In this document: piece by piece, positions 1 to 25,900 of the stretch
Position numbering within the stretch: the first letter of the stretch is position 1
Layout of the letters: each line of letters opens with the position of its first letter
NCBI GenBank assembly: GCA_963920595.1
Contig: OY986949.1
Span: forward strand, 310,001-374,000
Length of the DNA: 64,000 bases
Source: Eimeria praecox
Lineage: Eukaryota
Direction: 5' to 3'
The notes under the pieces: model-generated
The model's database searches: none
Seen by the model: the letters and a program-made list of their open reading frames with translations, nothing else
Told to the model about the DNA's origin: nothing
Translations under genes and position numbers: made by a program

Positions 1-3000
1 TGAGGAAGAGGATAAGATTCTGGAGATTATTAGAACACTGAAAAATAGACTGTACAGGCAGCAGCGGGCTCCAATCCTAAACGGTCAGCCTAGCACACGC
101 GTTCTCTAGTTTGGCTTGGCGCAAAGGGGTGACGAAGGACATTGCGTGCCCGACCGGCAACTGGTAAGCTCTGCCTTCTTTGACTGGGTCGCAAACGCGT
201 GGGCGCACTTGCTTAACGGCAAATAGTGCGTAGCATCAGGGCCGCAGCCATCCGACACACGATGCCATTTGTAGTAAGCCTGACTCTCGTTAATCGGGAG
301 CCGCCTCAAGACAACAACATTGCTAGCTGGCCCTTTCGTTGCTATTGCCTAAACGCTTCCCAACCTAAACATGCGGTATCCAGTTCCTCATTATTACTCG
401 CACCAGGTGCCCGGTGAGGCGCATATATTCTCACAGCAAATGCGAGTACGCACTCTGAAGTCCTCACAGGACATATTAGCGCTTTGGCAAAACTATTGAT
501 GCGGCGCACGCCACTAGGCATCGTGCACTCTGAACCAAACACGAGCGAAGATTTGCATAGTGAATAGATTCACATTCCTGATGAGAGTAGCATACTGTGT
601 TTTGCAGAGCCTGGTCGGCCTGGCAGTAAATGCGACGAAACCACATAAAGGCTAGGGAGCTCCCAGTCAACGAACGGTGCAAGTAGCGATCCTTCACTGT
701 CGATGCTTCCAACCCTTGCATTGCGTTGTTGGGCCATACACAGGTGTATCCGCATATGCACCCAAACATGCAAGCACGCAGGAGCATACAAACAAACAAA
801 CAACCCGGAATCGGGCTTCCATTGCATTATTGCCGCCCCAACACGAGCCGCAGTGGTCGGCCCTATCATCTGCGTGCTCACCTCCTGCGCAGATTCACGC
901 TTCCCTCAACTCCTCCCCACTCGGCTTTGAGCGCGTCTCCCAAGCGCTCGTCAACGTCCTTTGGGCTCCTACGATGTCGTTGGGTGAGAAGGTCGAGAAG
1001 GAGTTCTGTGGCATACAGCACGCCCCTGAGTGTCCAGCACCGCACGCAGCCACACTGAAGTGACCGAGCACCCAAACGGTCCAGAACGCACGGCTCCTCG
1101 TCCCCTAAAACACCGCACCAGTGCTGACGGATGCCACGCTGACCGATTCTTCGGAAGCAGGCCGGCTGCCTCTTTGCGTTATCTCCAACGTTCCGCAATG
1201 CGTACCTCCTGAATAGAACGCCAACCACCACTACTCACGGCAAAGCATGCTGCCTTGCACTCTCCCATCCACCACCCGTCAACTCCACGTAGCTCTTCGA
1301 TGCTTATCCCGCACCGCGCCTTCTTCTTACCACGTTTAATGCATCGAAGCGAATGAGACCCTCGGTCGAACGCCACCACATTTTATTTCTCATATCTGCA
1401 TCCGCCGGAATGACGTGCGTGCCTGCTAGGCACCCTGCCCACGGGAACGCAAACCCGCAAACCACCCTGCCACCATTCAGCAAATGCCATGAAAAGTATT
1501 GGGCGCGCACCCAACCACAGGCGCCTCCCACACAAAGCATATAAAACATCGTTTCGCCATTGCTGAGAATCCAGTCATCGTTGCCACCTGTGCTGCACTG
1601 CCATGCTGCTCTTCTACCTGCGCTGGCAACGAAAACACCTTCTGAATCACCATTTGAGTCCCGCTGAGGTAGCCACCTATACGCCGCCCCCTGGCGTCCA
1701 AACCCCAATCGATTAGCACATGCTCCTCCTCCTAGGTCAATGCAACGTCATGAGGTGATTCTAGCACTCTGTAGAACGTATAAAACAAGTTCCTTCCCCC
1801 AGAGTCACCTTGCAAATACAAAATTCCCTAAGCGCACCAACGACTCGTACAGTTCCTTCTACATTCTAGTCGACTAGCCAAACTTGCAATTCCTGCGCAT
1901 TTATCCCCAACACGTTCTCATTATACCTGCGCATCTATCGTTCTGTCTGGCGTCTGTCACGTAGCGAAAATACTTTGAACAGGCTTCGCCCACGTCATTA
2001 AGCGTCCATACTATTCCCTCAGCTCCTGCCTAGTGCGAGTATTCACCTTCCCCACGGCAGTTACAAACGGCTTTGCATATTTTTCCTGACCACATATCAA
2101 CGATTGATGCCTTGCTCCGCTTATTACCTAGCTCGCCGCTCGCCTCCTCGGCTATGGCAACCTGACGGATACACGCATTTCAATATCAGCAGTCTTTGCA
2201 TCCTCTTCATCCCTATGGGATTGACCCGCCGGATGTCCGAAGCGTATGTGTATGAACCATGCCGTCCACCCAGACCCAACACTCATCAATGATTGGATCT
2301 TGTGAAGGTTCTTCAGGTCCACAAGAAATGATAGAGTCAGCGATACCGAGCATGTAAGGATACGCCATTCCTTCTTCACTAATAACTCACCAGCTGCTAG
2401 CACATATGTGGCATTGCGACGTGATCTAGATCCCTGCAATTAATAGCAAGCAAGAGCTAGCCAAGTGCCACACGAAGAGACGCACATTCCCATTCTCCGG
2501 AATCGTGTTATCTGTCGCTGTTCATTGCTGCACCGTTCACAAAATAATCCCATTCTAGGGCCTTAAGGCACCTGCAATCTCGACTGCTGTTGCCACAAAC
2601 CATGCGTTACCACTGCAAATACGAAAACGTCAGATTCAAACCAAACGACGGCCTCTTATAGGACGGCGAAGACTACACTTAGCCACCTCGCGCTGTTCCG
2701 CTCCCAGATCAGACAACCCCGCTGGCTGCGCCAGCGCAGACCCGTCCCGCACATATTTACAAACGCATGCGGATCCCTGCCCTAGGGCAAGCCCTCTACT
2801 GTCCAGGGGCTGTACACGCACAAATATCCTTTTTAATTGGTAGCAGGTTTTGCCTTATGCTCAGCAACGCGATTTTTGCATGATGGCAGTGCAGGGTATT
2901 CCAGGGTGTATGCCCGAATCTCGGGTTTGCTCTGGAGATGGCGAAAAGGCTCCGCATAGTATCGGGTGGGCTTGCAAAGCTAGACAGACAGGAATCCCAG

Positions 3001-3190
3001 AGTTCATGAATGCATCCTTTAACCTCGCAAACTCAACAAATTCCTCTGCTTGTTTTGGGCAACCGTTGAAGTCAGCATGGTTGCTCTTAGAAGAGTCCGC
3101 TGCAAAAGCAGAAGTAGGAAGCCGTTGGCAGAATGAGCTTCTTGGACGACCACAACTCAGAATGTGGCATCTTCAAAGCCGAGCCCTTCG
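1..3190. repeat. Third copy of the same block (1-1030 matches 17697-18726; 1040-2530 matches about 20940-22470; diverged match to about 23115), without the 550-bp expansion
   Basis: The window begins TGAGGAAGAGGATAAGATTCTGG, as at 17697 and 24496; matching ORFs at 106/17802/24601 and 1477/21392. Confidence 0.93.
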
Positions 3191-5387
3191 TTGACCTTTA
3201 CGAGCCCTGACAGGAAAAAAGAGAACACTTTGTTTCCTTAGCTTTTGTCACTCTACCTTGCTGTATCGCCGCAGATCTCGCCAATTTCAAACCTGTCAAC
3301 GATGTCACCATGTTTTGCGTAGCCAACTGACAGCGTCCCTTAAGGACGGCCTTCTTCCATTCGAGTGCAATAAGCGTATGCGGCATTTTACACTTTGCTT
3401 TGCTCCCTGATTTGGCTGAGCATTTCCTTCCGCTTCAATCCCTGTACCCATACTCTCATTGCCCTGCCCAGTGCTGTTTTCCTGCGGATTCGCATGGAGG
3501 GCCATGCAGGCGCCCAATTCAGAACATCCCCAGCATAAAACACAACAAGAGTTGTGTCTGCGAAGCCACGCACTGTTGCCACGGTTGTCCTCGTACGCAT
3601 ATATACTCGAAATATCCGTTCTGGAGTCAAGCACCATAACCCAAGGGCGGCGTATGCGGCCACGTATATCAACCCACAAATTGACTATGTGAACGGGCAT
3701 TGCCATGTGATCCAGGCTCACAAATGTAGGAGATCTAGAACCCCGGCATGCCATATTAATCACTCAAATAGAAAACTTATCGTCGGTCGGCATGCACGCA
3801 CAAACTATGCTGTGCTGATGCGATACCGCCACCCAACTGGCCCTCTGGGAGTAAAGGGTAGCAGACATTAGAACGCATCCGTTTCCTGTACGCAACAGCT
3901 GCACGAATCACAGTCACGTCGTACCTGGATCCGCTGCAGTTACACCATCAAGCGTACCCCAGCGTAGGACAGTTGGTCGCCACCTCTCATCACTATTAGC
4001 ATCCTCATGCATATTCCACAACCTAGCCATTCGCTAGCTGAATGCTACTTTAACTCTGTATTCGAGCGGAGCATCTGTTCTAATTTTCAACGGGCATGAA
4101 GTACCCACCAATAGCTTGCATACCCCCGTGGCCACCCCAATGGAGCTCTTAACTCTGCAGGATAGCATTGCCGATGAAATCACCGCATCTGAAAGCCAAG
4201 AAGGCGATTGCGGCAAATAAGAAACACGCTACCAATGATGTTCGGGAGCCTGCAGGCTCGGGTGTACTTGCTGCCGCATACCACAGCATTCCTATATCCC
4301 ATCTATACTCCTTCAATTATCGTCGTGCCTAACAGTAAAGCGATTGCTGGAGTATGCAATGCTGAAGGAAACCCTGCTTTGCCAGCTGTACCGTCCTGGA
4401 CACCGAGGGTACTCTAGGCATTACCCCGCACCAAGCATTCCCTGCTTAAAATGGTGCCTCCACCCCTTCTGTTTAGAAGTAACTCATCCCTCTGCTCATC
4501 CTGATTAGCCTGTTGCCTTCAACACGCGTACATACAAACGACAAGCTACGGCACACTTCTGTACCCGAGCTGCGGTGGCCTCTGTAGGTGTATCGGTTCG
4601 TGGACATTAGGTTTCATTCATCCACATCAAAGCATCCAATCGCATTGTAGTGCATCGTCCGCTGATGGCCCCCAGGCTACCCACACGCTCAGCCGCTGCT
4701 TCCTTCAACGCAAACATTAAACTTTGAGTTTTTTATGGCCACATTCGATACACAGCATCGACTGCGTACCAACCGGCTGATAATCTGGGCTTCCTGTTGC
4801 TCGTCAGAAGCCATAAGCGCACTTCCTAAAGCACATGGTGCGTCTTATCAATGCAATAGAGATCCAATACACGATGCACGCTGGGTGGTTACTCGTCACT
4901 GCCTTCAAGGCAACAATATTTCACGTTGCTTGTTTAGATGCTCTCGTCTAACCGTTTGCCAACCCAAACTCCCAACTGTTTGCTCTTCAGGATTACCACC
5001 ATACAGTGGCCGACTACCAGACATTTGCCGGTGACGTGCACGGAGAGGCGTGAGGCGTAGGAAATGCGACTAGGGCGTCTGGAATCCTCGCACTAGAGCT
5101 TAGCGCTTGGAAAACGCGAATTATGCTGCGTATGCCACTAGGCATTGCACACTCTAAGCCAAACTCCCACAACCCCTTGCATTCCCAATAGCGTCACCTT
5201 CTTGTGAGCTGGCAACTGCGTCGTGAAGAGCCTGATCGGCCTGGCGGGAAATGCGGCATAACTGCATAAACGCTAGACGGGCCGCTGTTGTCGAACAGAG
5301 CACTCTTGGCCCCTTCACTGTTGATGATCGCCTCCCTCAACTCTTGTTTGGGTATATGCAGGTGAATGCACATGAGCACACAACGAT

Positions 5388-5473
<86 letters not shown>

Positions 5474-7904
5474 AAATATACACACACACATACACAAATA
5501 TACAAACAATCCGGCATCGAGCTTCCAATGCTTTATCGCTCCTTAGGAGGCGCGCAGTGAGGGCAGCTTCTGGGAGTCAGCCTTTGGAAATTTGACCTAA
5601 GCTCTCCAAAGAAGGGCAAATCCACGCCAACTTTTGTAGAGCTACACCAAGCAGCACGCAGTCAACTCCGATGCACGCAATCAATAGTGTTGCTCTTGCC
5701 CTGTCGCCTCTATCTGCAGCCGGTAGGTGAAAGAGCTCACGACCGTGGTTCATGGAGGAACAGGCCCCACTCCAGCTGGAATTCCGGCGGTCTGTTCATT
5801 CAAAACCAAGGACTGGGTTTGCGACCGCCTACCTCAGGGAGGCTGCTATGCCTTTGCTGCCCTCAGAAGAATTGAAGCAATGTATTGATAACATATCGAT
5901 CCTACGTACACAATGCTATAGCAGCTCGCTTTCTACGGGTATGATACCTTGCACAAAGCAAGCTGACGTGCACGTGTGCACCTCCATGAAGGCACCGCAT
6001 TTACAGCCCATTCTCCCCCAAGCGCTGTTAAATAGCACCGACAACGTCACCATACGCTTGTGGCTGTTTGGGTCAGCGCTAAGTGAAGAGAGAAAACAGC
6101 ATCCGCCTAGCTTCTGCGTATATATGCCTTCTCTTCTACTAAAAGCAACCACGCCCGTATGTACGCACTAGCTGAACAGTAAACGTGCTCACTGAGTGCT
6201 GTCAAAATGAAGTTCATCGTACCACGTGCCGCGACTTTACAATGCTGGCGCCGGTTATCCAAAATACAAACGATTTGAATTCCATGTCTCAACACAACCG
6301 AGTATGGCATAGCAAACGTTCGCATTCACCGTCTTGGCCTCAAACGTTGTCCATACTAAGTGTTTAATGCAACGCGTCAGTTCATATTAATGCTGAGACC
6401 ATGGAATTCGTAGTGTTGCAGCTGAATACCGTGTCCTCCAAATGTCAGTGACGCTGCAACCAAGTCAGGGCATCGTACGCTCTGTTCCAGGAGGACGTGG
6501 CGCTTGTAGTATCTGGATATCGAATCACTTTGTCTCGTATCCTACTCCCAGAAAGGCACCTGCTCTTCCCAATAACTCCAATCCATCGATCTACACCCCA
6601 AGCGGATCCCCGGAATCTACCATGGCACAAAGGTGTATGATGTGCCATTTATCGCTGCTTTAGCTTCGCCATTAGCTGGTGAAGTCCCTACACGAACATG
6701 AACAAAAATGCTTCAGACTAAACGTCTTGTGGGCACCCAGCGAACACACGTGAAGCAAGTGCCTTTCTGCGAAATCGTTTGACGGGAAGATCATTAGAAA
6801 CCCCTGCACGTGTCCCCATGCCAGTACAGCAACGTGACAGGATACAAAAGGCCTAACAAGCCACGAAGCCTTCACTGCCATACTTCATAACAACTCCACG
6901 GCACACCAATTAAAACTCAGCTGCGCGAATTCCAATACGGCCATTTACACCACCTAGGCAATATGCGTCACCAGTCGTATACTTGCTTCACAACAATATT
7001 GGCACTGGCACAGCAAGCGCCACAATGGGCGCTCAGCACCCAGCGACGCTGCAAATGGCTGCCTGCGTGTGTTCCTCGCACATATGCATCTGCCTTTGTT
7101 GCTGAAGGTAAATCCACCTGCTGCTAGTGGCTGCCACATCTTGCAGACAGTGGCATCATGCGTCCAACAAACACCTAATCCAACACTAGGCATTTGATTG
7201 TGGATGCGACCAGACGTATTCACCCTATCGTACGCCCTCACCGGTTCGGCCAGCCGCCACGCCGTGCCAACGAACATCATATGGGCAACGGGGTACAAAT
7301 ACACTTGATCTTTTTTCTGTGAAAGCACGCGGATGCCATTTAACTTCACTCCCTTAAGCGGAAGTGGTGCAATGCAGTAGAGGTCCAATACATGATGCAT
7401 GCTGGGTGGTTACTCGTCATGGCCTTCAAGGCAACAACTTTTCACGTTGCTTGTTTCGATGCTCTCGTCTAACCGTTTGCCAACCCAAACACCCAACTGT
7501 TTGCTGTTCAGTATTACCACCAGGCAGCGGCCGACCAGCATACACTGGCCAGCTAGCTGCACAAAGAGAGTATGAAATGCAACTAGGGCGTCTGGAGTCC
7601 TCACACCAGAGCTTAGTGCTTTCAGAACGCCAATTATGCTGCGCACGCCACTAGGCATCGTACACTCTAAGCCAAACGCCCACAACCCCTTGCTTTCCTA
7701 ATAGTTTTACCTTCTCATGAGCTGGCAAATGCGTCCTGAAGAGCCTGACTGGCCTGAGGGGAAATGTGGCATAACCCCATAGATGCTCGAATGGGCTGTT
7801 ATCCTCGAGCACAGCACTCAGGCCCCTTCACTGTTGATGATCGCCTCCCTCAACTCTTGTTAGGCTATATATAGGTAAATGCACATGCGCACACAAACAT
7901 GCAG

Positions 7905-7967
<63 letters not shown>

Positions 7968-10900
7968 TGCATACACACAGTCAGACATCGAGCTTCCTGC
8001 GTCCCTAGAAAGCCTGCCGTTGGGGACGATTCTGGGCGTCAGCCCACGCAAATTTGCTCTAAGCACTCGAAAAGAGCATAGCCTCAATCCTACTGGTCCA
8101 GACATCACAACACACTGCACACAACCAGTTTGCTTGCTATTGGCCTGCCTGCACTCTCTGCAGAAAGCAGATGCAAAAGCTCAAAAATGTTCTCCGCAGC
8201 TCAGGCTCCACCCTCGATGAATATCCAGGCGCTCGCTCCTTCGAAACAAGCACTAGGCTTGCGACAGAAATTTTCTCGTACACTGTCCACCCTCTCGTGT
8301 CTTAAACAACACCTAGGCATTCTCTTGAATAGCCATCCTTCCTACGCTTACGAAGGCATAATAGGTCGCTATGGACAAATATGACGTCTTACACCAAATA
8401 TGGTGACATGCACGTCTCCTCGCCCTTGCTAGCACCCGACGGAGAACCCAACTTCGACCTAGGCATCTGTTCGTTCGGACCAGCGCCACACGAAAAGGAA
8501 AGGCAGCACGGACTACCCGCCTATCTCCTGCACATAGAAGATCTCTGTGCTACTGAACGCCGAGGGGTGGCGTACCCCCGCACTACTTAAACAGTAAACA
8601 AGACATCTTGCCATTCTATTTATCTAGTCTATCCTACCACCCTCTGCAACTTTAAAATGCTGCCCACGGAATCGTCCAAAAACAAACATTGTTTGCGCCG
8701 CTTGCTTCGAGGTAATCGCCTAAGGTATGATCAACGTCTGCATTCAGTTTGGCTGCCGTCAAGCCTCCTATGCTCAATTGCTAGCAGACGCCTTTCGCGG
8801 TCCATGCATCAGCTGCATGGGCAGCATGTCTTCTATGCGAGACCAATTCGACGTTCTGTGAGCATATGTTGACCAGCTGCCAGCCCTTGTTTCTCCTTGC
8901 ATCCAAAACGCCCAACTGTGTCTTCCTGCCACACGAATCAAACGCCTACAAAAGCACAATCGCCGTCCCTGTTCATATCCATCTGATGCACCTGCTGCCC
9001 AGTCATATTCCGAAGCAAACAAACCCAAGTCCTCTCTCAGCAACGAAAGACCGCTACAAGCCCCCACTCTTACGCTACACAGATTGCGCGTTCTTCATGT
9101 GGAAACCGAAAAGCTCAAACGCCTGTACGCTGGCCTAGATGTCATTTGGTTCCCCCAAACGCAAGACGTGCAGGCGTAAGGTTTACACGCACGCCGTCCC
9201 GACATCCCAAAACAACGTACGCATCTCCCATGCAACTCGTTCCGTAGCAGGGTATGCTATGTGCTACATATGAGACGCTAAGGTGCCTAACGCCGCGACT
9301 GCATCAACACAAGTTTTGTCTCGTGCTGTGCGATCCACGGCAAATCGTTGCACAATGCCAACAGCACGCACACGTGGACCCACACACATCTGCGTAGACC
9401 TTCTGGAGCCATCCACAGCGCCTACGCAACAGCCACGGAAACGGAATCTCCAAACGCTTCTTCTGCAACGCAGCAGCGACCTGCACAATGCAAACGTGGG
9501 CGCTACATGCAGCAAAGGTACAAGTATCGGACACTCTGGTCTCGAAGAATCCAACGCCTTTCAACACAGACTAATCACGTCCCCAACCTGTCAACATACA
9601 CTGACGGCAGTTCGTCTTCGACGTAGCCACTAGACACATCTATGCACTAAACACATGCCTTGCCATGTTTGCGGAGTCCAGCATTTGTCTACTAGACCGC
9701 CAACTGTCCACACATGATGTTCATACGCACTCGCTTTAGAGCATCCAACCATACTGAAGCGGTGCTAGAGCAATTCAGTCCACGGCAAAATCTGTTGCCC
9801 ATACAACGGTGCGCTTTGTTCGGGTGTAAAGCACCATTATCACAGCGCGCAGCTTGCATCACATGGCACGGGATCTGTGCCCCATCGATGCGAAGAGTTC
9901 ATAACTGCCTGGGTAAAAATCCCATACCACCAGCCCGTGAGTGCGGTGCCTTGCACAGGTCACAGCTGCTGCACACAAGGTAGGTTATCGTACGCTCTGC
10001 TCCAGAACCACGTGGCACTAGTGTTGCATGGACATCATGCCTGTCTCAGTTTAGCTTTGGACTCCTCAAAAGAATGCACCTGCTCTCCCGGACAAGTCGC
10101 ACTTGTTGATCTGCAACCCAAACGGATCCCCGAAATCCGCTATGCAGCAAAGGCACATGCTTTTTATTTTATCGATTCTTTAGCGTTGTCATCTGTTGTT
10201 GAAGCCTTGACACTAAAGTAAATACCGACGCTTCAGCCTAAGCGTCTTGTGGGCACCCAGCGAACGAGCTTGAAGCAAAGGCCTTTCTGTGAAAACGTGT
10301 GCCGGGAAGAGCATGGCCGTGAACAGCACGTAGGCACTTGGCGTCACCGACCGTCTACTTGCGTCACAGAAATATTGGCACTGCGGCACAAATGAGCCAC
10401 AATACTCACGTAGAAACCAGAAACGCTGCAAATGAGCAGCTGTGTGCGCCCCTTGCTCATGTAGCTCTCCCAGATTCCTCTGGAGTAAATCCACCTGTTG
10501 TTAGCAGCTTCAACGCCTTGCAGACAGTGGCATCACGCGTCCAGCAAACACCTGATGCAGCACTACGCATTTGATTGCGGGTGTGACAAGAAGAATTCAG
10601 CCGAGCGTACGCCCTCCGTGGATGGGCTGGGCGAGATGCGGTGCCGAAGAACATCACATGGGCAGCGGGTTACTGATACCCTTTGCGGTCATTTTCTGGA
10701 AGCAGGCGAGTGCCATTTAGGCTCACTCGCTAAACCGGAAACGGTATGCCTCACCACTAGAGCAAAAACGCAATGCATGATGCACGCTAGATGGTTACTC
10801 GTCACGTCCTTCAAGGCAACAATATTTCATGTTGCTTGTTTAGACGCTATCGTCTAACCGTTTACAAACCCAAACTCCCAATCGTTTTCTCGTCATTAGT

Positions 10901-13900
10901 AGCACCATACAGTGGCCGACTACCGGACATTCGCCGGTACCGTGCACGCAGAGGCGTACAAAATGCGACTACGGCGTCTGTAGTCCTCCCACTAGAGCTT
11001 GGTGATTCGCGAACGCCAATTAATCTGCATACGCCGCTAGGCTTCGTACACTCTAAGCCAAACACCTACTACCCCTTGCACTCCCCATAGCGTCACTTTC
11101 TTGTGAGCTGGAAACTGCGTCGTAAAGAGCCTGATCGGCATAGCGGGCACTCCTGCATAACCGCATAGAGGCTAGAGAGGCTGCGGGAACAACGCACTCA
11201 GGGCCCTGTTGAAGATCGCCTCCCTCAACTCTTGTTAGGGCATATGCAGGTGAATGCACATCAGCACACAAGCATGCAGGTACACAGAGACACACACAAA
11301 TGCATACACACAATCAGACATCGAGCTTCCAATGCTTTATCCTCCCCAGGAGGCCTGCCGTGAGGGGCGATTCTGAGCCTTCAGCCCACGCAAATTTGAT
11401 CTAAGCACTCCAGACAAGACCATAGCCTCAATCCTACTGGCGCAGACATCACAACACACTGCACGCAACCAGTTTGCTTGCTATTGGCCTGCCTGCACTC
11501 TCTGCAGAAAGCAGATGCAAAAGCTCAAGAATGTTCTCCGCAGCTCAGGCTCCACCCTCGATGAATATCCAGGCGCTCGCTCCTTCGAAACAAGCACTAG
11601 GCTTGCGACAGAAATTTTCTCGTACACTGTCTACTCTCTCGTGTCTTAAACAACACCTTGACATTCTCTTGAATAGCCATCCTTCCTACGCTTACGAAGG
11701 CATAATAGGTCGCTATGGACAAATATGACGTCTTACACCAAATATGGTGACATGCACGTCTCCTCGCCCTTGCTAGCACCCGACGGAGAGCCCGCTCTGT
11801 CTAACACACCTTCAAGCCGCACACCCAACTTCGACCTAGGCATCTGTTCGTTCGGACCAGCGCCACACGAAAAGGAAAGGCAGCACGGACTACCCGCCTA
11901 TCTCCTGCACATAGAAGATCTCTGTGCTACTAAACGCCGAGGGGTGGCGTACCCCCGCACTACTTAAACAGTAAACAAGACATCTTGCCATTCTATTTAT
12001 CTAGTCTATCCTACCACCTTCTGCAACGTTAAAATGCTGCCCACGGAATCGTCCAAAAACAAACATTGTTTGCGCCGCTTGCTTCGAGGTAATCGCCTAA
12101 GGTATGATCAACGTCTGCATTCAGTTTGGCTGCTGTCAAGCCTCCTATGCTCAACTGCTAGCAGACGCCTTTCGCGGTCCATGCATCAGCTGCATGGGCA
12201 GCATGTCTTCTATGTGAGACCAATTCGACGTTCTGTGAGCATATGTTGACCAGTTGCCAGCCCTTGTTTCTCCTTGCATCCAAAATGCCCAACCGCGTCT
12301 TCCTGCCACACGAATCAAACGCCTACAAACGCACAATCGCCTTCCCCTGTTCATATCCATCTGATGCACCTGCTGCCCAGTCATATTCCGAAGCAAACAA
12401 ACCCAAATCCCCTCTAAGCAACGAAAGACCGCTACAAGCCCCCGTTCGTACGCTACACAAATTCCGCGTTCCTCATTTAGGAACCGCAAAAGCTCAAACG
12501 CCTCTACGTTGGCCTAGACGTCATTTCGTTCCACCAAACGCAAGACGCGCATGAGCAAGGTCTATTGATCCACAGCGAATCGCTGCACAGGGCGAACAGC
12601 GTGCACAGGTGGACCCACACACATCTGCGTAGACCTTCTGAAGCCATTCACAGCGCCTATGCAACAGCCACGAAAACGGAATCTCCCAGCGCCTCTTCTT
12701 CAACGCGCAATGCTCAACACACAGTGCTCTGCAAAATGCAAACGTGGACCCTACCATGCAACAAACGTACAAGCCTTTGACACTCTGGTCTTGAAGAATC
12801 CAACGCCTTCCATCCCAGACTAATCACGTCCTCCCCCTGTCCGCATACACTGAAGGCAGTTCGTTTTCGACGTAGCCGCTAGACGCATCTATGCATTCAA
12901 TACACGCCTCCCCGTGCTTGCGGAGTCCATCATTTGTCTGCTATACTGCCAATCGTCCACATATGATGCTCATACGCACTCGCTTTAGAGCATTCGGGCA
13001 TGCTGAAGCGGTGTTAGAACAGCTCAGCCCACGACAAAATCTGTTGCCCTTACAACGTTGCGCTTTTCTTCGGTTGGAAGGCAGCATTATCACAGCGCGC
13101 AGCTTGTATCACATGGCACGGGATCCACAAACCATCGCTAAGACCCGTCAAAACCCGCCTGGATAAAAGCCTTCATACCGCCAGCACCCTGTGTACGGTA
13201 TCTTGCACAGGCCACAGCTACCCCACGCAAGGTCGGGCAACATACGGTCTGCTCCAGAAGGACGCGGCACTAGCATTTTCTGTACATCAAATTAATTCAG
13301 TTATCATACGATCCCCCAGAACTGCAACGGGTTAGTGCACCGCGTGGCGTAGAAAGGGTGTCTAGTTCTTCTAGAGTACTCAAATCAGGGCCTAATGCCT
13401 TGGCAACACCAATTATGCTGCGCACGCCACTAGGCATCGTACACTCTAAGCCACGAACCCACGATGCCTTGCATAGCAAGTAGATTCACCTTCTTGTGAG
13501 CTGGCAACTGCGTTGTGAAGAGCCTGATTGGCCTGGCGGGAAATGTGGCATAAACATGTTAATGCTAGAATAGGCTGTTGCTCTCGAGCAGACCACTCAT
13601 GGGCCCTTCATTGTTGATGGTTGCTTCCCTTAACCGCGTCATTAGGCTATGCATAGATAGATGCACACGCGCGAACAAGTGCGAAGGCACACACGAACGC
13701 ACAAGCATGCACAAAAACTGCTTAGAAGCTTTTCAATGCTTTGTATGCCCCAGTACACCTGCTGTGAGGGCAGATTCTGGGCATCAGCCTACGCAAATTC
13801 GGCCTAAGCACTCCAGAGAAGAGCATACCCTTACTCCTACTGACCCAGACACCACAACACACTGCACGCAACCAGTTTGCTTGCCCTTGGTCTGTCTGCA

Positions 13901-16900
13901 CTGCCTGCAGAAGGCAGATGCAAAAGTTCAAGAGTGTGCTCTGCAGCTGAGGCTCCTGGAGGCTGGATATCCAGGAACCTAGTGCTTCACAACAAGCATT
14001 AAGTTTGCGGCAGAAATCTTCTCATACGCTGTGTAGACACCCTTATCTTTAAGAAAACCCAGGCATTCTCTTGAATAGCCATCCATCTTACGCTTACGAC
14101 GGTACACCAGTTGTGATGGGGTGCCCCTCTTCTCGCCCTTCCTAGCACCGTATGGATGGTCTGCCCTGCCTAAAGCACCGGTGCGCAGCACAGCCAACTT
14201 TAGCCTAGGCATCTGTTCGCTCGGAACAGCCCTACACAAAACGAAAAAGCAGCATTCCCTACCCGCCTGTACCCCGCACATAGAACGGTTCTGCGCTACG
14301 TAGAGAGATGGCATATCCTCGCACTAGCTAAACGTCAAGCAGGTGATTTCGCCGTTCCATTGATCCAGTCTATCCTACCACCCTCTGCAACTTTAAAATG
14401 CTGCCCACGGAATCGTCCAAAAACAAACATTGTTTGCGCCGCTTGCTTCGAGGTAATCGCCTAAGGTATGATCAACGTCTGCACTCAGTTTGGTTGCCGT
14501 CAAGCCTCCTATGCTCAATTGCTAGCAGACGCCTTTCGCGGTCCATGCATCAGCTGCATGGGCAGCATGTCTTCTATGCGAGACCGATTCGAAATTCTGT
14601 GAGCATATGTTGGCCAGATGCCAGCCCTTGTTTCTCCTTGCATCCAAAACGCCCAACCGCGTCTTCCTGCCACACGAATCAAACGCCTACAAAAGCGCAA
14701 TCGCCTTCCCCTGTTCATATCCATCTGATGCACCTGCTGCCCAGTCATGCTCCGAACCAAACAAACCCAAATCCTCTCTCAGCAACGAAAGACCGCTACA
14801 AGCCCCCGTTCGTACGCTACACAAATTCCGCGTTCCTCATTTAGGAACCGCAAAAGCTCAAACGCCTCTACGTTGGCCTAGACGTCATTTCGTTCCACCA
14901 AACGCAAGACGCGCATGAGCAAGGTCTATTGATCCACAGCGAATCGCTGCACAGGGCGAACAGCGTGCACAGGTGGACCCACACACATCTGCGTAGACCT
15001 TCTGGAGCCATTCACAGCGCCTATGCAACAGCCACGAAAACGGAATCTCCCAGCGCCTCTTCTTCAACGCGCAATGCTCAACACACAGTGCTCTGCAAAA
15101 TGCAAACGTGGACCCTACCATGCAACAAACGTACAAGCCTTTGACACTCTGGTCTTGAAGAATCCAACGCCTTCCTTCCATCCCAGACTAATCACGTCCT
15201 CCCCCTGTCTGCATACACTGAAGGCAATTCGTTTTCGACGTAGCCGCTAGACGCATCTATGCATTCAATACACGCCTCCCCGTGCTTGCGGAGTCCATCA
15301 TTTGTCTGCTATACTGCCAATCGTCCACATATGATGCTCATACGCACTCGCTTTAGAGCATTCGGGCATGCTGAAGCGGTGTTAGAACAGCTCAGCCCAC
15401 GACAAAATCTGTTGCCCTTACAACGTTGCGCTTTTCTTCGGTTGGAAGGCAGCATTATCACAGCGCGCAGCTTGTATCACATGGCACGGGATCCACAAAC
15501 CATCGCTAAGACCCGTCAAAACCCGCCTGGATAAAAGCCTGCATACCGCCAGCACCCTGTGTACGGTATCTTGCACAGGCCACAGCTACCCCACGCAAGG
15601 TCGGGCAACATACGGTCTGCTCCAGAAGGACGTGGCATTAGCATTGCCTGTACATCAAATTAATTCAGTTATCATCCGATCCCCCAGAAAAGCAACTTTT
15701 CAGTATCTGAAATGCGTTGATCTGCACCCCAAGCGTATCCCTGGAATCCAGCATGGCGCATAAAGAAATAGGCTGGGCCGTGTACCCTTGCATTTGCTTA
15801 CCACAAAGGCGAACAGAGTGCGCACAGATAAACACAGACGCTTCAGCCTCATCTTCGTATTTATACACAGCGACCGAGCTAGAACCAAGTGCCCTTCTGT
15901 GAAGTCGTTTAGAGGGGAGAGCATAGAACGTCTTTCCACGTGAGTTCAGCAACGGGATACCAAACGCCTAAAGATCCGCAACATGTGCTCTGTTATACTG
16001 CATGAAACAGCAGGTAAACCACTGCTACGGAATTGCCAACATCGCCGTTTGCAGCATCTAGCCAATACGCGTTACCAGTAATCGTTTGAGTTTAGATCGA
16101 TCCTGGCATTGCCACAGCATATGCGGAAACCGGGGCTGCGCTGCAAACAATCAGCTGGGTGCCTTTGTCGCCCATCTACCTGAGTCCTCGAAGGTAAATC
16201 TGCATGTTATTATGACCTTCAGTTTCTCGCGCACAATGATTTCACGCGTATACCCAGCATCCCGTGAAATCCCAAGCACTTTATTGGGCGCGTGACAGGA
16301 GGACGTCGGCCTAACACACACGCAGCCCTGCCAACGAATATGGCGAAGATGATACGCAGTGTCTCGTCTTATTTCTCTCTATGCAAGCGCATGGAATATA
16401 AGCACACTCGCTGAAAGGAAAGGGTAGGTTGCGTCAGTGCAGCAGGAATCGACTGGAGGATGGCAGCTTCAGTACCCCGAAGTCGGAACGATCCTGAATT
16501 GCATTATTTGCCACCTGCCCAGTATGTCGGGCCCGCTCACACCAAACCAAGAGCAAGTGTAGTGTATAACTGCATTTGCTTCAAACTAACGAAGATCATG
16601 TCAGCAGGCCACGTGTGAACCTCTTGCAAATAAGTTGGATGCAACGCTCTATCTGCACTTTCCGCCATTCTGTTTTACCGGCCTGCGCAGTGTGGGAGTC
16701 GTGAGGGAGGTTGCCTGCACCCTATAGCAAACGCGGAATCTGCAGCATAGCTGCGCCAAAACAGAAAATCCTAATCTTGAACTCGAAAGGTGTTGTTACG
16801 TTCTTTCGATAAGACGAACAGAAGACGCCTCATCCATCTTATCTGCTATGCCGACGGCTGCGTGCAATAATATGTCCTATCATTGAGCCTTTGGGCCCTT

Positions 16901-19900
16901 TGCTCTCCGCGTGAGATGTGAAGATGCCAAATACAAGCAATAACTGCACCCCCTTGACTGCAGGCCGCTAAATTTTAAGGAGGGCACATTTGGCGGAATC
17001 CGTACTGCTTGGCTGCAGCCTATGGTTCCACTTTTTTTCTTTCAACGGGGGAAGTTGCATCGAACATTTCACGTTGACGTGTGAACTTTTGCTTGATAAT
17101 GGCGGTTCACTGCGAGTTGGCTTGAATTGAAATTCTGGCCATGTAGCGTTCAGTTTTACAATGGACTGCCGTCAAAATGCACTCCCAAACAGCTTATCCA
17201 TCTACGAAACATGGCAACAAGGCACTCCAAACTTAGTTTCCAAAATCTGAGATAGCCAGGTGCCAGCTGATCACTTTCAACTCTGTATTCGCGCTGGGCA
17301 GCGGCTCTGGATTTCAATGGGCATGCAATATTCACTTGCACTTCACATATCCCCAGGGTCTCAGCAGCCAATTGCGTACCTCATTGCCTTCAGAAAGCGC
17401 AAATAAAAACGATATGCTACTGTGCACTTCTGTGAGCGAGTCATACTGGCCACTGTAGGTGAATCATTTCATCGAAATAGGTTTCGCTAATCCAAATCAA
17501 TACACGCAACTACACCAGCTTGGACAGAGGATATAAAGCACTGTCTTCCTCCCTCAACAAACCTCACAGCAAATGCCAAAACATTTATGAGTGTGGTGCA
17601 CCTTGCGCTGCCTTCCTGCAGGCAAGCCGCAAGATCAGGCGTGGCTTCCTTCAAAGCAATCTTTGAACTTGTGACGGCCCAATCCGCAAGGGCCTTTGAG
17701 GAAGAGGATAAGATTCTGGAGATTATTAGAACACTGAAAAATAGACTGTACAGGCAGCAGCGGGCTCCAATCCTAAACGGTCAGCCTAGCACACGCGTTC
17801 TCTAGTTTGGCTTGGCGCAAAGGGGTGACGAAGGGCATTGCGTGCCCGACCGGCAACTGGTAAGCTCTGCCTTCTTTGACTGGGTCGCAAACGCGTGGGC
17901 GCACTTGCTTAACGGCAAATAGTGCGTAGCATCAGGGCCGCAGCCATCCGACACACGATGCCATTTGTAGTAAGCCTGACTCTCGTTAATCGGGAGCCGC
18001 CTCAAGACAACAACATTGCTAGCTGGCCCTTTCGTTGCTATTGCCTAAACGCTTCCCAACCTAAACATGCGGTATCCAGTTCCTCATTATTACTCGCACC
18101 AGGTGCCCGGTGAGGCGCATATATTCTCACAGCAAATGCGAGTACGCACTCTGAAGTCCTCACAGGACATATTAGCGCTTTGGCAAAACTATTGATGCGG
18201 CGCACGCCACTAGGCATCGTGCACTCTGAACCAAACACGAGCGAAGATTTGCATAGTGAATAGATTCACATTCCTGATGAGAGTAGCATACTGTGTTTTG
18301 CAGAGCCTGGTCGGCCTGGCAGTAAATGCGACGAAACCACATAAAGGCTAGGGAGCTCCCAGTCAACGAACGGTGCAAGTAGCGATCCTTCACTGTCGAT
18401 GCTTCCAACCCCTGCATTGCGTTGTTGGGCCATACACAGGTGTATCCGCATATGCAACCAAACATGCAAGCACACAGGAGCATACAAACAAACAAACAAC
18501 CCGGAATCGGGCTTCCATTGCATTATTGCCGCCCCAACACGAGCCGCAGTGGTCGGCCCTATCATCTGCGTGCTCACCTCCTGCGCAGATTCACGCTTCC
18601 CTCAACTCCTCCCCACTCAGCTTTGAGCGCGTCTCCCAAGCGCTCGTCAACGTCCTTTGGGCTCCTAAGATGTCGTTGGGTGAGAAGGTCGAGAAGGATT
18701 TCTGTGACATACAGCACGCCCCTGAGTATCCAGCACTGCATGCAGCCACACTGAAGTGACCGAGCACCCAAACGGTCCAGAACGCAGCTTGTGTAAACAC
18801 TCGCACGGCTCCTCGCCCCCTAAAACATCGCACCAGTGCTGACGGATGCCACGCTGACCGATTCTTCGGAAGTAGGCCGGCTGCCTCTTTGCGTTATCTC
18901 CAGCGTTCCGCAATGCGTACCTCCTGTATAGAACGCCAACCACCACTACTCATGGCAAAACATGCTGCCTTGCACTCGCCCATCCACCACCCGTCAACTC
19001 CACGTGGCTCTCCGATGCTTATCCCGCACCGCGCCTTCTCCTTACCACGTTTAATGCACCGAAGCGAATGAGACCCTCGGTCGAACGCCACCACATTTTA
19101 TGTCTCATATCTGCATCCGCCGGAATGACGTGCGTGCCTGCTAGGCACCCTACCCACGGGAAAGGAACCCAGCAAGCACACCAGAGGACGCCAGACGCCT
19201 TCAACGTCCTCTGTGTTCCTTTAATGTGGTTGAGTGGGTTGAGAAGGATTTCTCTGACATGCAGCACGCCCCTGAGTATTCAGCACTGCATGCAGCCACA
19301 CTGAAGTGACCGAGCACCCAAACGGTCCAGAACGCAGCTTGTGCAAACACTCGCACTGCTCCGCGTCCCCTAAAACATCGCACCAGTGCTGACGGATGCC
19401 ACGCTGACCGATTCTTCGGAAGTAGGCCGGCTGCCTCTTTGCGTTATCGCCAACGTTCCGCAATGCGTACCTCCTGAATAGAACGCCAACCACCACTACT
19501 CATGGCAAAAAATGCTGCCTTGCACTCGCCCATCCACAACCCGTCAACTCCACGTGGCTCTCCGATGCTTATCCCGCACCGCGCCTTCTTCTTACCACGT
19601 TTAATGCACCGAAGCGAATGAGACCCTCGGTCGAACGCCACCACACTTTACGTCTCATGTCTGCATCCGCCGGAATGACGTGCGTGCCTGCTAGGCACCC
19701 TACCCACGGGAAAGGAACCCAGCAAGCACACCAGAGGCCGCCAGACACCTTCAACGTCCTCTGTGTTCCTTTAATGTGGTTGAGTGGGTTGAGAAGGATT
19801 TCTCTGACATGCAGCACGCCCCTGAGTATTCAGCACTGCATGCAGCCACACTGAAGTGGCCGAGCACCCAAACGGTCCAGAACGCAGCTTGTGCAAACAG

Positions 19901-22900
19901 TCTCACTGCTCCGCGTCCCCTAAAACATCGCACCAGTGCTGACGGATGCCACGCTGACCGATTCTTCGGAAGTAGTCCGGCTGCCTCTTTGCGTTATCTC
20001 CAACGTTCCGCAATGCGTACAGCTTGTATAGAACGCCAACCACCACTACTCATGGCAAAACATGCTGCCTTGCACTCGCCCATCCACCACCCGTCAACTC
20101 CACGTGGCTCTTCGATGCTTATCCCGCACCGCGCCTTCTTCTTACCACGTTTAATGCACCGAAGCGAATGAGACCCTCGGTCGAACGCCACCACACTTTA
20201 CGTCTCATGTCTGCATCCGCCGGAATGACGTGCGTGCCTGCTAGGCACCCTACCCACGGGAAAGGAACCCAGCAAGCACACCAGAGGCCGCCAGACACCT
20301 TCAACGTCCTCTGTGTTCCTTTAATGCGGTTGAGTAGGTTGAGAAGGATTTCTGTGACATACAGCATGCCCCTGAGTATTCAGCACTGCATGCAGCCACA
20401 CTGAAGTGACCGAGCACCCAAACGGTCCAGAACGCAGCTTGTGCAAACACTCGCACTGCTCCGCGTCCCCTAAAACATCGCGCCAGTGCTGACGGATGCC
20501 ACGCTGACCGATTCTTCGGAAGCAGGCCGGCTGCCTCTTTGCGTTATCGCCAACGTTCCGCAATGCGTACCTCCTGTATAGAACGCCAACCACCACTACT
20601 CATGGCAAAACATGCTGCCTTGCACTCGCCCATCCACCACCCGTCAACTCCACGTGGCTCTCCGATGCTTATCCCGCACCGCGCCTTCTTCTTACCACGT
20701 TTAATGCACCGAAGCGAATGAGACCCTCGGTCGAACGCCACCACACTTTACGTCTCATGTCTGCATCCGCCGGAATGACGTGCGTGCCTGCTAGGCACCC
20801 TACCCACGGGAAAGGAACCCAGCAAGCACACCAGAGGCCGCCAGACGCCTTCAATGTCCTCTGTGTTCCTTTAATGTGGTTGAGAAGGTTGAGAAGGATT
20901 TCTCTGACATGCAGCACGCCCCTGAGTATCCAGCACTGCATGCAGCCACACTGAAGTGACCGAGCACCCAAACGGTCCAGAACGCAGCTTGTGCAAACAC
21001 TCGCACGGCTCCTCGTCCCCTAAAACATCGCACCAGTGCTGACGGATGCCACGCTGACCGATTCTTCGGAAGCAGGCCGGCTGCCTCTTTGCGTTATCTC
21101 CAACGTTCCGCAATGCGTACCTCCTGAATAGAACGCCAACCACCACTACTCATGGCAAAAAATGCTGCTTTGCACTCTCCCATCCACCACCCGTCAACTC
21201 TGCGTAGCTTTCCCATGCTTATCCCGCGCCGCGCCTTCTGCTCACCATGTCTAATGCACCGAAGCGAATGAGACCCTTGGTCGAGGCCCACCATACTTTA
21301 CGTCTCATATCTGCATCCGCCGGAATGACGTGCGTGCCTGCTAGGCACCCTGCCCACGGGAACGCAAACCCGCAAACCACCCTGCCACCATTCAGCAAAT
21401 GCCATGAAAAGTATTGGGTGCGCATCCAACCACAGGCGCCTCCCACACAGAGCATATAAAACATCGTTTCGCCATTGCTGAGAATCCAGTCATCGTTGCC
21501 ACCTGTGCTGCACTGCCATGCTGCTCTTCTACCTGCGCTGGCAACGAAAACACCTTCTGAATCACCATTTGAGTCCCGCTGAGGTAGCCACCTATACGCC
21601 GCCCCCTGGCGTCCAAACCCCAATCGATTAGCACATGCTCCTCCTCCTAGGTCAATGCAACGTCATGAGGTGATTCTAGCACTCTGTAGAACGTATAAAA
21701 CAAGTTCCTTCCCCCAGAGTCACCTTGCAAATACAAAATTCCCTAAGCGCACCAACGACTCGTACAGTTCCTTCTACATTCTAGTCGACTAGCCAAACTT
21801 GCAATTCCTGCGCATTTATCCCCAACACGTTCTCATTATACCTGCGCATCTATCGTTCTGTCTGGCGTCTGTCAGGTAGCGAAAATACTTTGAACAGGCT
21901 TCGCCCACGTCATTAAGCGTCCATACTATTCCCTCAGCTCCTGCCTAGTGCGAGTATTCATCTTCCCCACGGCAGTTACAAACGGCTTTGCATATTTTTC
22001 CTGACCACATCAACGATTGATGCCTTGCTCCGCTTATTACCTAGCTCGCCGCTCGCCTCCTCGGCTATGGCAACCTGACGGATACACGCATTCCAATATC
22101 AGCAGCCTTTGCATTCCCTTCATCCCTATGGGATTGACCCGCCGGATGCCCGGAGCGTATGCGTACGGAACATGCAGTCCGCTGGGCATCGGCGTCCCAG
22201 ACCCAACACTCGTCAATGATTGGATCTTGTGAAGGTTGTGTGAAGGTTCTTCAGGTCCACAAGAAATGATAGAATCAGCGATACCGAGCAAGTAAGGATA
22301 CGCCACTACTCCTTCACTAATAACTCGCCAACTGCCAGGACAAGCATGGCACTGCGACGTGATCTAGACACCTGCAATTAATAGCAAGCAAGAGCTAGCC
22401 AAGTGCCACACGAAGAGATGCACATTCCCATTCTTCGGAATCATGCTATCCGTCGGTGTTTATTGCTGCACTGTTCACAAAATTATCTCGTGCTCGAGCC
22501 ACACGACACCTACCATCCCAATTACTGTTGCCACAAGGCATGCGGTACCACTGAAGATGCGCAAATGTCCTGATTCAAACCAAGCAACGGCCTCTTGTGC
22601 GCCAGAGTTTGCCATGTCTAGCGGCCTCACCTTTTTCCCACTGCCAGATCACCCAACCCTACTGGCTTCACCCTGCACCACTGCGGATCAGTCCTGCGAG
22701 TATTTACAAGCGCATGCGGCTTCCTATGTAGGAGCAGGACGCACACAAATGCTCTTGTTACGTTGTAGCAGGATTTGCTTTGTGCTCAACGATCTTATTG
22801 CTGCACACTGTCAGTGCAACTGATGGCGTATGCAGGAATATCGGGGTTGCTCTGCAGATGCCCAAACGGTCCCGCGACAGCATCGACTGGGCTTGTGAAC

Positions 22901-25900
22901 CTCAGCGCACAGGCTACCAAGAATACACGAGTGCACCGGTAGGCCTCGCAAACCCTACAGTCCCCGCTGCTTCCTTTCAGCTACTGTTGAAGTCGGCCTG
23001 GCTGCCTTTAGTGAAGGATGCTGTAGAAACAAAAGGCCATTGGCAGCTTGAGCTTCTTTGGGCAGCCACAACTCACAGTGCAACATCTACAAAAAACGCC
23101 TCTGGCAGGTCTATTTAAGAAGAGGAAGGCTAGTCGTTGGCCCTTTAGAATTCGCCGATTCGGCAAATAGGCGAGCTATGCTCGCTGCGAATTCGCTCTC
23201 TGTTTCGCACAGGAACCTAATATCAAGTATTGGGAACAGCCAGACGCTACAACGTCAATGCCGCAGCTTTCATTGCTTGAAGGACCATGATGTCGGTGCG
23301 CCTGCTGCTAACCACCACCAATCTTTCGAAATGGGGTAATTCGAGGGGGCGGGAGGAAGATTTCTGGAGGTTCCGAAAGATCAAGGAAGACACGGGTGAA
23401 GTACAAGCCACGTGAGAGCCTCTTGCAAATAAGTTGGATGCAACGCTCTATCTGCACTTTCCGCCATTCTGTTTTACCGGCCTGCGCAGTGTGGGAGTCG
23501 TGAGGGAGGTTGCCTGCACCCTATAGCAAACGCGGAATCTGCAGCATAGCTGCGCCAAAACAGAAAATCCTAATCTTGAACTCGAAAGGTGTTGTTACGT
23601 TCTTTCGATAAGACGAACAGAAGACGCCTCATCCATCTTATCTGCTATGCCGACGGCTGCGTGCAATAATATGTCCTATCATTGAGCCTTTGGGCCCTTT
23701 GCTCTCCGCGTGAGATGTGAAGATGCCAAATACAAGCAATAACTGCACCCCCTTGACTGCAGGCCGCTAAATTTTAAGGAGGGCACATTTGGCGGAATCT
23801 GTACTGCTTGGCTGCAGCCTATGGTTCCACTTTTTTTCTTTCAACGGGGGAAGTTGCATCGAACATTTCACGTTGACGTGTGAACTTTTGCTTGATAATG
23901 GCGGTTCACTGCGAGTTGGCTTGAATTGAAATTCTGGCCATGTAGCGTTCAGTGTTACAATGGACTGCCGTCAAAATGCACTCCCAAACAGCTTATCCAT
24001 CTACGAAACATGGCAACAAGGCACTCCAAACTTAGTTTCCAAAATCTGAGATAGCCAGGTGCCAGCTGATCACTTTCAACTCTGTATTCGCGCTGGGCAG
24101 CGGCTCTGGATTTCAATGGGCATGCAATATTCACTTGCACTTCACATATCCCCAGGGTCTCAGCAGCCAATTGCGTACCTCATTGCCTTCAGAAAGCGCA
24201 AATAAAAACGATATGCTACTGTGCACTTCTGTGAGCGAGTCATACTGGCCACTGTAGGTGAATCATTTCATCGAAATAGGTTTCGCTAATCCAAATCAAT
24301 ACACGCAACTACACCAGCTTGGACAGAGGATATAAAGCACTGTCTTCCTCCCTCAACAAACCTCACAGCAAATGCCAAAACATTTATGAGTGTGGTGCAC
24401 CTTGCGCTGCCTTCCTGCAGGCAAGCCGCAAGATCAGGCGTGGCTTCCTTCAAAGCAATCTTTGAACTTGTGACGGCCCAATCCGCAAGGGCCTTTGAGG
24501 AAGAGGATAAGATTCTGGAGATTATTAGAACACTGAAAAATAGACTGTACAGGCAGCAGCGGGCTCCAATCCTAAACGGTCAGCCTAGCACACGCGTTCT
24601 CTAGTTTGGCTTGGCGCAAAGGGGTGACGAAGGGCATTGCGTGCCCGACCGGCAACTGGTAAGCTCTGCCTTCTTTGACTGGGTCGCAAACGCGTGGGCG
24701 CACTTGCTTAACGGCAAATAGTGCGTAGCATCAGGGCCGCAGCCATCCGACACACGATGCCATTTGTAGTAAGCCTGACTCTCGTTAATCGGGAGCCGCC
24801 TCAAGACAACAACATTGCTAGCTGGCCCTTTCGTTGCTATTGCCTAAACGCTTCCCAACCTAAACATGCGGTATCCAGTTCCTCATTATTACTCGCACCA
24901 GGTGCCCGGTGAGGCGCATATATTCTCACAGCAAATGCGAGTACGCACTCTGAAGTCCTCACAGGACATATTAGCGCTTTGGCAAAACTATTGATGCGGC
25001 GCACGCCACTAGGCATCGTGCACTCTGAACCAAACACGAGCGAAGATTTGCATAGTGAATAGATTCACATTCCTGATGAGAGTAGCATACTGTGTTTTGC
25101 AGAGCCTGGTCGGCCTGGCAGTAAATGCGACGAAACCACATAAAGGCTAGGGAGCTCCCAGTCAACGAACGGTGCAAGTAGCGATCCTTCACTGTCGATG
25201 CTTCCAACCCCTGCATTGCGTTGTTGGGCCATACACAGGTGTATCCGCATATGCAACCAAACATGCAAGCACACAGGAGCATACAAACAAACAAACAACC
25301 CGGAATCGGGCTTCCATTGCATTATTGCCGCCCCAACACGAGCCGCAGTGGTCGGCCCTATCATCTGCGTGCTCACCTCCTGCGCAGATTCACGCTTCCC
25401 TCAACTCCTCCCCACTCAGCTTTGAGCGCGTCTCCCAAGCGCTCGTCAACGTCCTTTGGGCTCCTAAGATGTCGTTGGGTGAGAAGGTCGAGAAGGATTT
25501 CTGTGACATACAGCACGCCCCTGAGTATCCAGCACTGCATGCAGCCACACTGAAGTGACCGAGCACCCAAACGGTCCAGAACGCAGCTTGTGTAAACACT
25601 CGCACGGCTCCTCGTCCCCTAAAACATCGCACCAGTGCTGACGGATGCCACGCTGACCGATTCTTCGGAAGTAGGCCGGCTGCCTCTTTGCGTTACCTCC
25701 AGAGCCTCCCAGTGCGTACCCTCTGCGTGAAAGGCCAACCGCCACTACTCATGGCAAAAAATGCTGCCTTGCACTCTCCCATCCACCGCCTGTCAACTCT
25801 GCGTAGCTCTCCCATGCTCATCCTGCTCCGCGCCTTCTTCTTACCACGTTTAATGCACCAAAGCGAATGACGCCCTTGGCCTAACTCCACCACATTTTAT

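Follow-up and report, generated by a model that had tools for sequence, protein, structure and literature searches.

The 64,000-nt stretch of contig OY986949.1 analysed here (positions 310,001 to 374,000; 'the window') carries two neighbouring sets of candidate exons of three nucleotides, each a triplet between an AG acceptor and a GT or GC donor. The left set, our main subject, lies in a block of nested duplications, on the same strand as a dense array of such candidates further right. Diverged copies of the left-block slots have kept both splice dinucleotides and the three-nucleotide gap more often than matched control sites, and selection on splice-type dinucleotides at 3-nt spacing is therefore supported. 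The first-pass annotation had confined the pattern to 209..16410; one of its own sites, 25720, lies outside that range, and the duplications extend over positions 1 to about 28400.

A mosaic of nested duplications

Self-BLAST and the list of slots resolve the left block into the following parts.

1-28400, minus strand: left block, a mosaic of nested tandem duplications with candidate 3-nt exons
13345-15780, minus strand: unit A of a 2.4-3.3 kb repeat
10620-13340, minus strand: unit B of this repeat, an A/C crossover chimera
7250-10160, minus strand: unit C, with contig depth about 6x single-copy in runs X1 and X3
4720-6640, minus strand: unit D, without the middle part of the unit
26040-28560, minus strand: unit Z, the most diverged copy (about 58-60%), single copy
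18647-21449, minus strand: five 550-nt tandem units with one F7 position each (self-BLAST)
23404-25974, minus strand: 2.57-kb block, 98% identical to 16605-19175 (self-BLAST)

The five copies of the 2.4-3.3 kb unit are 58-86% identical overall in self-comparison and repeat the slot families, listed below, in the order F4-F5-F6-F3-F2-F1. Unit B matches unit A at 97-100% identity in its first kilobase, down to about 12500; between about 12200 and 11500, a stretch over which A and C are more than 20% different, it matches unit C at 97-99%. Read from the alignments, this chimeric build is the mark of unequal crossover or conversion. Part of the 2.57-kb block (24496-25974) recurs at 1-1460, and the 1.46-kb block is present in three copies that are 95-97% identical. 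Duplicated copies in the left block are 94-98% identical by self-BLAST, which points to recent duplication. CA microsatellites lie at the same place in units D (5389-5496) and C (7906-7965) and are absent or short in A and B.

Contig depth, which is not a copy number by itself, was calibrated internally on the one-, two- and three-copy parts of the window. DNA contigs of run X1 had a depth of 44-57 (about 50) over single-copy sequence, 99.5 over the two-copy block and 131 over the three-copy block; over unit C the depth was 282-329, with 19 differences in 730 nt. Depths in run X3 stood in the same ratios (about 500, 1043, 1530 and 2950), and the contigs of run X4 gave little coverage outside unit C. 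A sequencing-run search with 4000-13900 listed six matches in four datasets, none of them RNA, which has no bearing on expression. By this calibration the depth over unit C suggests about six near-identical copies, most of them outside the window. Recent duplication, in keeping with the active duplication proposed by the first-pass annotation, is shown by the near-identical copies, by the A/C chimera and by contig depth. Because one run X1 contig without differences spans 26045-31407, the left block and the dense array are real neighbours on the DNA.

Families of three-nucleotide slots

Nine families of slots (F1-F8 and F10), with 46 paralogous positions, were recognised in the left block, all on the minus strand.

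209-211: slot F1, CAA; near-identical copies at 17905-17907 and 24704-24706
4823-4825: slot F1, GAA
7350-7352: slot F1, GGA, donor without +5 G
10727-10729: slot F1, CGA
16408-16410: slot F1, CGA, with no AGT slot upstream in its copy
527-529: slot F2, AGT, GC donor; copies at 18223-18225 and 25022-25024
5151-5153: slot F2, AGT, donor without +5 G
7664-7666: slot F2, AGT
11050-11052: slot F2, AGT
13443-13445: slot F2, AGT
26075-26077: F2 position, AG and GT both lost
8155-8157: slot F3 (TTCTGCAG), AGA, weak family, donor without +5 G
11499-11501: slot F3 (TTCTGCAG), AGA
13902-13904: slot F3 (TTCTGCAG), GCA
5711-5713: F3 position in unit D, GT lost
26441-26443: F3 position in unit Z, GT lost, register uncertain by two bases
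6479-6481: slot F4, AGC
9994-9996: slot F4, AGC
13246-13248: slot F4, ACC
15614-15616: slot F4, ACC
28395-28397: probable slot F4, GGT; assigned from collinearity, as its local identity (0.46-0.53) is at noise level
9731-9733: slot F5, CGA; copies at 12980-12982 and 15348-15350
28075-28077: F5 position in unit Z, GT lost
6169-6171: slot F6, CTA, absent from the first-pass list
14325-14327: slot F6, CTA
26913-26915: slot F6, CTA, with 59% identity to the remaining intact copies
8584-8586: F6 position, AG shifted one base (2-nt gap); same at 11961-11963, one event (units C and B)
1206-1208: slot F7, GAG; copies at 18921-18923, 19471-19473, 20571-20573 and 21121-21123
25720-25722: slot F7, AGG
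20021-20023: F7 position, AG shifted by a single base to leave a 2-nt gap; intact copies are 93-97% identical to this one
882-884: slot F8, GAG; copies at 18578-18580 and 25377-25379, 99-100% identical and hence uninformative
2391-2393: slot F10, CTG; copy at 22329-22331, TTG with a GC donor

All 14 sites quoted earlier, each by the last base of its triplet, read as written on the minus strand, and self-BLAST confirmed them as paralogous (they fall in F1, F3, F4 and F7). The distance of about 320 nt reported between the F1 and AGT slots is 314-328 nt in six of the seven F1 copies and does not apply at 16408. That the codon changes from copy to copy is true of F1, F3, F4, F7 and F10, and untrue of F2, F5 and F6, in which all intact copies share one triplet. 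Read in phase 0, the changes in F1, F3, F4 and F7 alter the residue and that in F10 is synonymous, on few sites. The 39 intact slots, at a median spacing of 454 nt, encode in that phase mostly Glu, Ser, Arg and Leu, and none is a stop. Unit Z has kept F6 and probably F4 and has lost F2, F3 and F5.

Two details concern single positions. At 8155-8157 the high-depth contig found in runs X1 and X3 differs in the middle base of the triplet, with AG and GT unchanged among the 40 of 130 difference rows listed. The acceptor losses at 20023 and at 8586/11963 are independent of each other, and both shift the AG by one base, leaving a 2-nt gap before an intact donor.

Splice signals outlast their flanks

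We collected every site of the form [ACT]AG-N(k)-GT[AG]NG, with k from 1 to 20, on both strands of the left block, grouped these sites into families and scored retention in diverged paralogues (flank identity 50-85%) as AG, GY and spacing all kept. All three were retained in 0.63 of the pairs from the eight minus-strand 3-nt families, where flank identity predicts 0.21, whereas retention in 257 control families (spacers 1-20, both strands) was 0.223 against an expected 0.225 (resampling p=0.00085). Deep retention, at 70% identity or less, was found in 5 of the 8 families and in 45 of the 257 controls (Fisher p=0.007). The 3-nt excess held at p<=0.0008 in three identity windows and at p=0.004-0.013 when only strict GT was counted; for single signals against controls, p was 0.02-0.045 (AG alone), 0.015-0.08 (GT alone) and 0.016-0.08 (+5 G). 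Two simpler statistics, a raw left-block count of AG-NNN-GT[AG]NG (41 against 27+-4 in 30 shuffles) and a pairwise test (30/44 against 12.9), were set aside, as the copies are not independent and both values are inflated by this.

Individual families illustrate the effect. AG and GT are invariant in all five lineages of F1, against 0.21 of ungapped flank columns (post hoc chance 0.0009), and in all four lineages of F4, against 0.19 (post hoc chance 0.0012); both families are intact in every copy found, the deepest splits included, and in both the first two triplet positions vary between the fixed AG and GT. F6 keeps AG-CTA-GT in three copies that are 59-60% alike. Two donor changes (in F2 and F10) are to GC, the tolerated variant. 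The TTCTGCAG slot, by comparison, is poor evidence for splice selection: its intact copies are all 79-96% alike, the two copies of about 60% have lost it, and it has no +5 G. The signal as a whole is real and modest in size, and it is carried mainly by F1, F2, F4 and F6.

Scoring with a matrix trained on the dense array gave a similar picture. In 18,189 non-redundant left-block bases, 12 three-nucleotide sites scored at least 9, against a mean of 2.2 for other spacers. The left slots also exceeded background at positions unused in picking them (acceptor -13..-4, p=0.0005; donor +4,+6..+8, p=0.0007), in copies that are not independent.

Relative to matched controls, then, the splice signals are kept better than their flanks predict, and the proposal of selection on splicing passes its own refutation test. 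Its wording was too broad in two respects. AG, GY and the 3-nt gap do persist beyond flank prediction, and yet not generally: seven of the 46 positions are lost, none of them on the earlier list. The +5 G, named as a peak along with AG and GY, is missing from 5 of the 39 intact slots, including 7352, 5153 and all TTCTGCAG copies, its column conservation is 0.73 against 0.61 in the flanks, and flank peaks are equally high.

The neighbouring dense array

To the right of the left block lie further candidates of the same kind.

30098-56127, minus strand: dense array of about 86 candidate 3-nt exons, alanine-rich and stop-free in phase 0, median spacing 260 nt
39943-42101, within the dense array: 851-nt unit in 2.5 near-identical copies (a recent triplication), three slots each
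39495-39835, plus strand: degenerate eukaryotic large-subunit ribosomal RNA fragment (Rfam RF02543, E 5e-19), antisense within the dense array, beside the 851-nt triplication
56201-64000, minus strand: about 10 sparser 3-nt candidates, spacing 340-1900 nt, reaching 63946

Between 29001 and 64000, the minus strand holds 109 AG-NNN-GT[AG]NG sites, against 25+-5 in shuffles, 13-43 for other spacers and 12 on the plus strand. Taken as whole codons, none of the 86 scored candidates of 28501-56200 is a stop, compared with 6 and 3 stops when the phase is shifted; 34 of the codons encode alanine. Their acceptor consensus is TGCATYAG, with TGC in 33 of 74 against a background of 184/890; the window itself is rich in TGC/GCA. 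Such TGC-rich acceptors recall the UGC enhancer of animal neural micro-exons. As a candidate one-codon array, the dense array is far stronger than the left block on these counts. The sparse candidates continue to the window's end, and the locus therefore probably runs beyond it.

Several side observations belong to this part of the window. At 34352-34708 run X1 yields a second contig (depth 13 against 37; 30 differences in 359 nt) that covers slots 34603 and 34355 and may come from a diverged paralogue, from another strain or from another species. Leaving the 3-nt slots aside, the acceptor-donor pair with the highest scores (10.3, 10.2) is at 28607-28684 (minus strand), between the arrays; the 78-nt exon that it would bound, 28684-28607, was rejected as open in only one, non-zero, phase. 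The motif TGCATGCA occurs 11 times against 0.9 expected by base composition, and 4 times against 3.9 under a second-order model in 28501-64000. PMC3505466 locates this motif in repeat-rich segments; its presence here may lend weak support to a coccidian lineage. Simple repeats are scarce in the window (four found), which does no more than fit an Eimeria-type repeat-poor segment as described in PMC4199364. Together with the GC content and the TGC/GCA richness, this scarcity would tentatively suggest a coccidian such as Eimeria.

Other coding candidates were discarded. A Pfam scan of 83 of the 113 open reading frames of at least 100 amino acids (near-duplicates and microsatellite frames excluded) gave five weak matches and none at the cut-off; a mobile element was set aside, as no transposon domain appeared among these 83. 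A 33/34-nt exon candidate (8982, 12360, 14724) differs in length among copies, and a hydrophobic open reading frame at 822/18518/25317 overlaps TG-rich sequence and has lost its ATG in unit D. A scan for hydrophobic (signal-peptide) exons running from ATG to donor returned no convincing conserved candidate in the window, and the 5' end may lie outside it. A pattern scan of metagenome contigs with two spaced array motifs hit two loci, both bacterial-looking duplicated coding DNA, which we took as chance.

Live exons, relics or separate genes

We consider that the left-block slots are probably live one-codon exons, in phase 0, of a very long gene. Against this weigh, first, several properties of the slots themselves. 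The independent 3-nt families number eight, not above other spacers (5-14), and a 4-nt site next to F2 is kept almost as well (0.83). In the averaged column profile, flank peaks (-6, -13, -25, -26) are as high as the splice columns. The triplet itself is kept at 0.80-0.88, against 0.63-0.70 expected from the flanks over all families; coding constraint would produce this, and so would some other kind of short motif. At 0.46-0.57, the alignments of the deepest pairs are close to aligner noise (0.50), and the link of 28397 to F4 therefore rests on collinearity.

Some of these properties would suit an explanation without splicing, in which the slots are short motifs conserved for some other role in the DNA, such as transcription-factor sites, or have survived by chance within a segmental duplication: the unremarkable family count, the triplets often conserved along with their flanks, an F2 block conserved over about 35 nt and a test that takes in only 8-10 families. 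Controls picked in the same way, however, show no excess, the effect is confined to 3-nt spacing and to the strand on which the neighbouring array lies, the F1 and F4 triplets vary between their fixed dinucleotides, and GT gives way to GC. We regard such an origin as highly improbable.

The second group of contrary points concerns losses and the comparison with the dense array. Seven positions (26077, 5713, 26443, 28077, 11963, 8586 and 20023) have lost their signals and 39 are intact; the copy that holds 20023 still shares 93-97% identity with intact copies. Left-block acceptors are far weaker (median -1.4 against 2.5) and differ in style, with TTY in 16 of 25 and TGCA in 0 of 25, against TGCA in 21 of 74 in the dense array. 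Alanine fills 1 of 39 left slots against 34 of 86, and spacing is 454 against 260 nt. Three branch-point patterns were enriched in neither array, and scans of the window found no start or terminal exon.

Weak acceptors, low slot density and losses, recent ones (20023 and 8586/11963) included, are what a decaying relic should show: exons that were real in the ancestral unit and under selection as the deep copies grew apart, in a block that would by now be mostly unspliced DNA, intronic or downstream of the gene, and would still be duplicating. The excess retention stems from old splits and does not tell when the selection acted. F1 and F4, in contrast, are intact in all copies found across the deepest splits, and losses are expected also in a live array where a single residue is dispensable. 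Decay of this kind is in our view unlikely, though it deserves more weight than an origin without splicing.

A further possibility, raised as an alternative by the first-pass annotation, is a separate tandem gene family, with a small micro-exon gene of its own in every 2.4-3.3 kb unit. It would account for the unit size and the repeated slot order, for the acceptor style and residue make-up unlike those of the dense array, and for the extra unit copies indicated by contig depth; in four of five lineages the F2 acceptor opens into a frame of ten codons closed by TAA. The five aligned copies, however, revealed no longer exon, start, stop or signal-peptide exon in common, the units break off and join one another at arbitrary points (13340, 6400), and only 20 of the 122 indels between copies are multiples of three. 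The gene-family proposal is thus unsupported, and we think it very unlikely. As no unit has a start or stop of its own, the left block is probably an exon-block duplication within one long gene rather than a gene family. Whether it forms the downstream part of the dense array's own gene or a separate gene is about an even call.

How a gene of one-codon exons could grow

If the slots are live exons, the long gene would gain residues through tandem duplication of slots and lose them one by one as splice sites decay. About 99% of its DNA would be intron and each exon a whole codon; nearly any unequal crossover would then fall in an intron and keep the reading frame, and losing or skipping a slot would cost one residue only, making slot birth and death cheap. 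Frame-safe crossovers and the low price of a lost slot would explain both the free growth of the block and its seven losses. By analogy with schistosome micro-exon genes, the likeliest product would be a secreted or surface protein, variable and of low complexity; in an animal parasite it would be a candidate variable antigen.

A more far-reaching reading, which we put forward tentatively and do not expect to hold in full, takes all 64 kb of the window as belonging to a single gene of a protist parasite in which each exon encodes one amino acid (about 135 codons are seen, and unassembled copies would add more). The length and sequence of its protein would be edited residue by residue, by unequal crossover, by turnover of splice sites and by skipping of exons. 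Such a gene would have converged on the strategy of the schistosome micro-exon genes and carried it further.

Genes of 3-nt exons escape gene finders and standard read aligners, and a class of variable proteins may thus be missing from annotations. The paralogous block offers evidence, from sequence alone, for selection on the two splice sites that flank a 3-nt exon, and it illustrates how such a gene can grow, by frame-safe duplication and single-residue loss. It also makes testable how a spliceosome would join more than 100 consecutive 3-nt exons.

Comparison with known micro-exon systems

Schistosome micro-exon genes (MEGs) are described in PMC4350168 as having very small symmetric exons, alternative splicing, a signal peptide, a distribution restricted to flatworms and recent duplications; PMC10526429 gives them 10-20 exons of 6-81 nt (3-81 in its abstract), mostly of 15 nt. 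MEG products are variable, and a high dN/dS of the mature region is a further MEG trait; of the triplet changes here, those in F1, F3, F4 and F7 alter the residue, on few sites. If its predicted exons are real, the present locus would resemble MEGs in placing coding sequence in tiny symmetric exons between long introns (spacers of 200-2400 nt here), and it is like them in its recent duplication (PMC4350168, PMC10526429, PMC4015677). This last, lineage-specific trait is seen in the 94-98% identical copies, the chimeric unit B and the raised depth. Unlike the mostly 15-nt exons of MEGs, all candidates here are of 3 nt (about 86 + 39 + 10 in 64 kb), and spacers of 4-30 nt show no comparable enrichment. 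Duplication here strikes exon blocks, not whole genes, and no counterpart of the N-terminal signal-peptide exon of MEGs was identified in the window scan. Schistosome DNA is AT-rich; the GC content of the window is about 51%. The locus, as predicted, works like a MEG yet departs from the exon-size pattern, and we do not class it as one.

Micro-exons of 1-15 nt with ordinary GT-AG sites, usually missed by annotation, are reported from plants and animals, with 9 nt the commonest length in flowering plants (PMC8831610). The spliceosomal pattern of AG acceptor, GT or GC donor, purine at +3 and G at +5 is found here, with 39 of 46 positions intact. Isolated plant and animal micro-exons, however, sit singly among ordinary exons, and no ordinary exon was found in these 64 kb. 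Our literature search, by title and start of abstract and with subscription papers and supplements outside its scope, found nothing on micro-exons in Eimeria and, among the matches listed for Toxoplasma or 3-nt exons, nothing on such arrays. An array of one-codon exons that grows by segmental duplication would be a new variant of micro-exon gene architecture.

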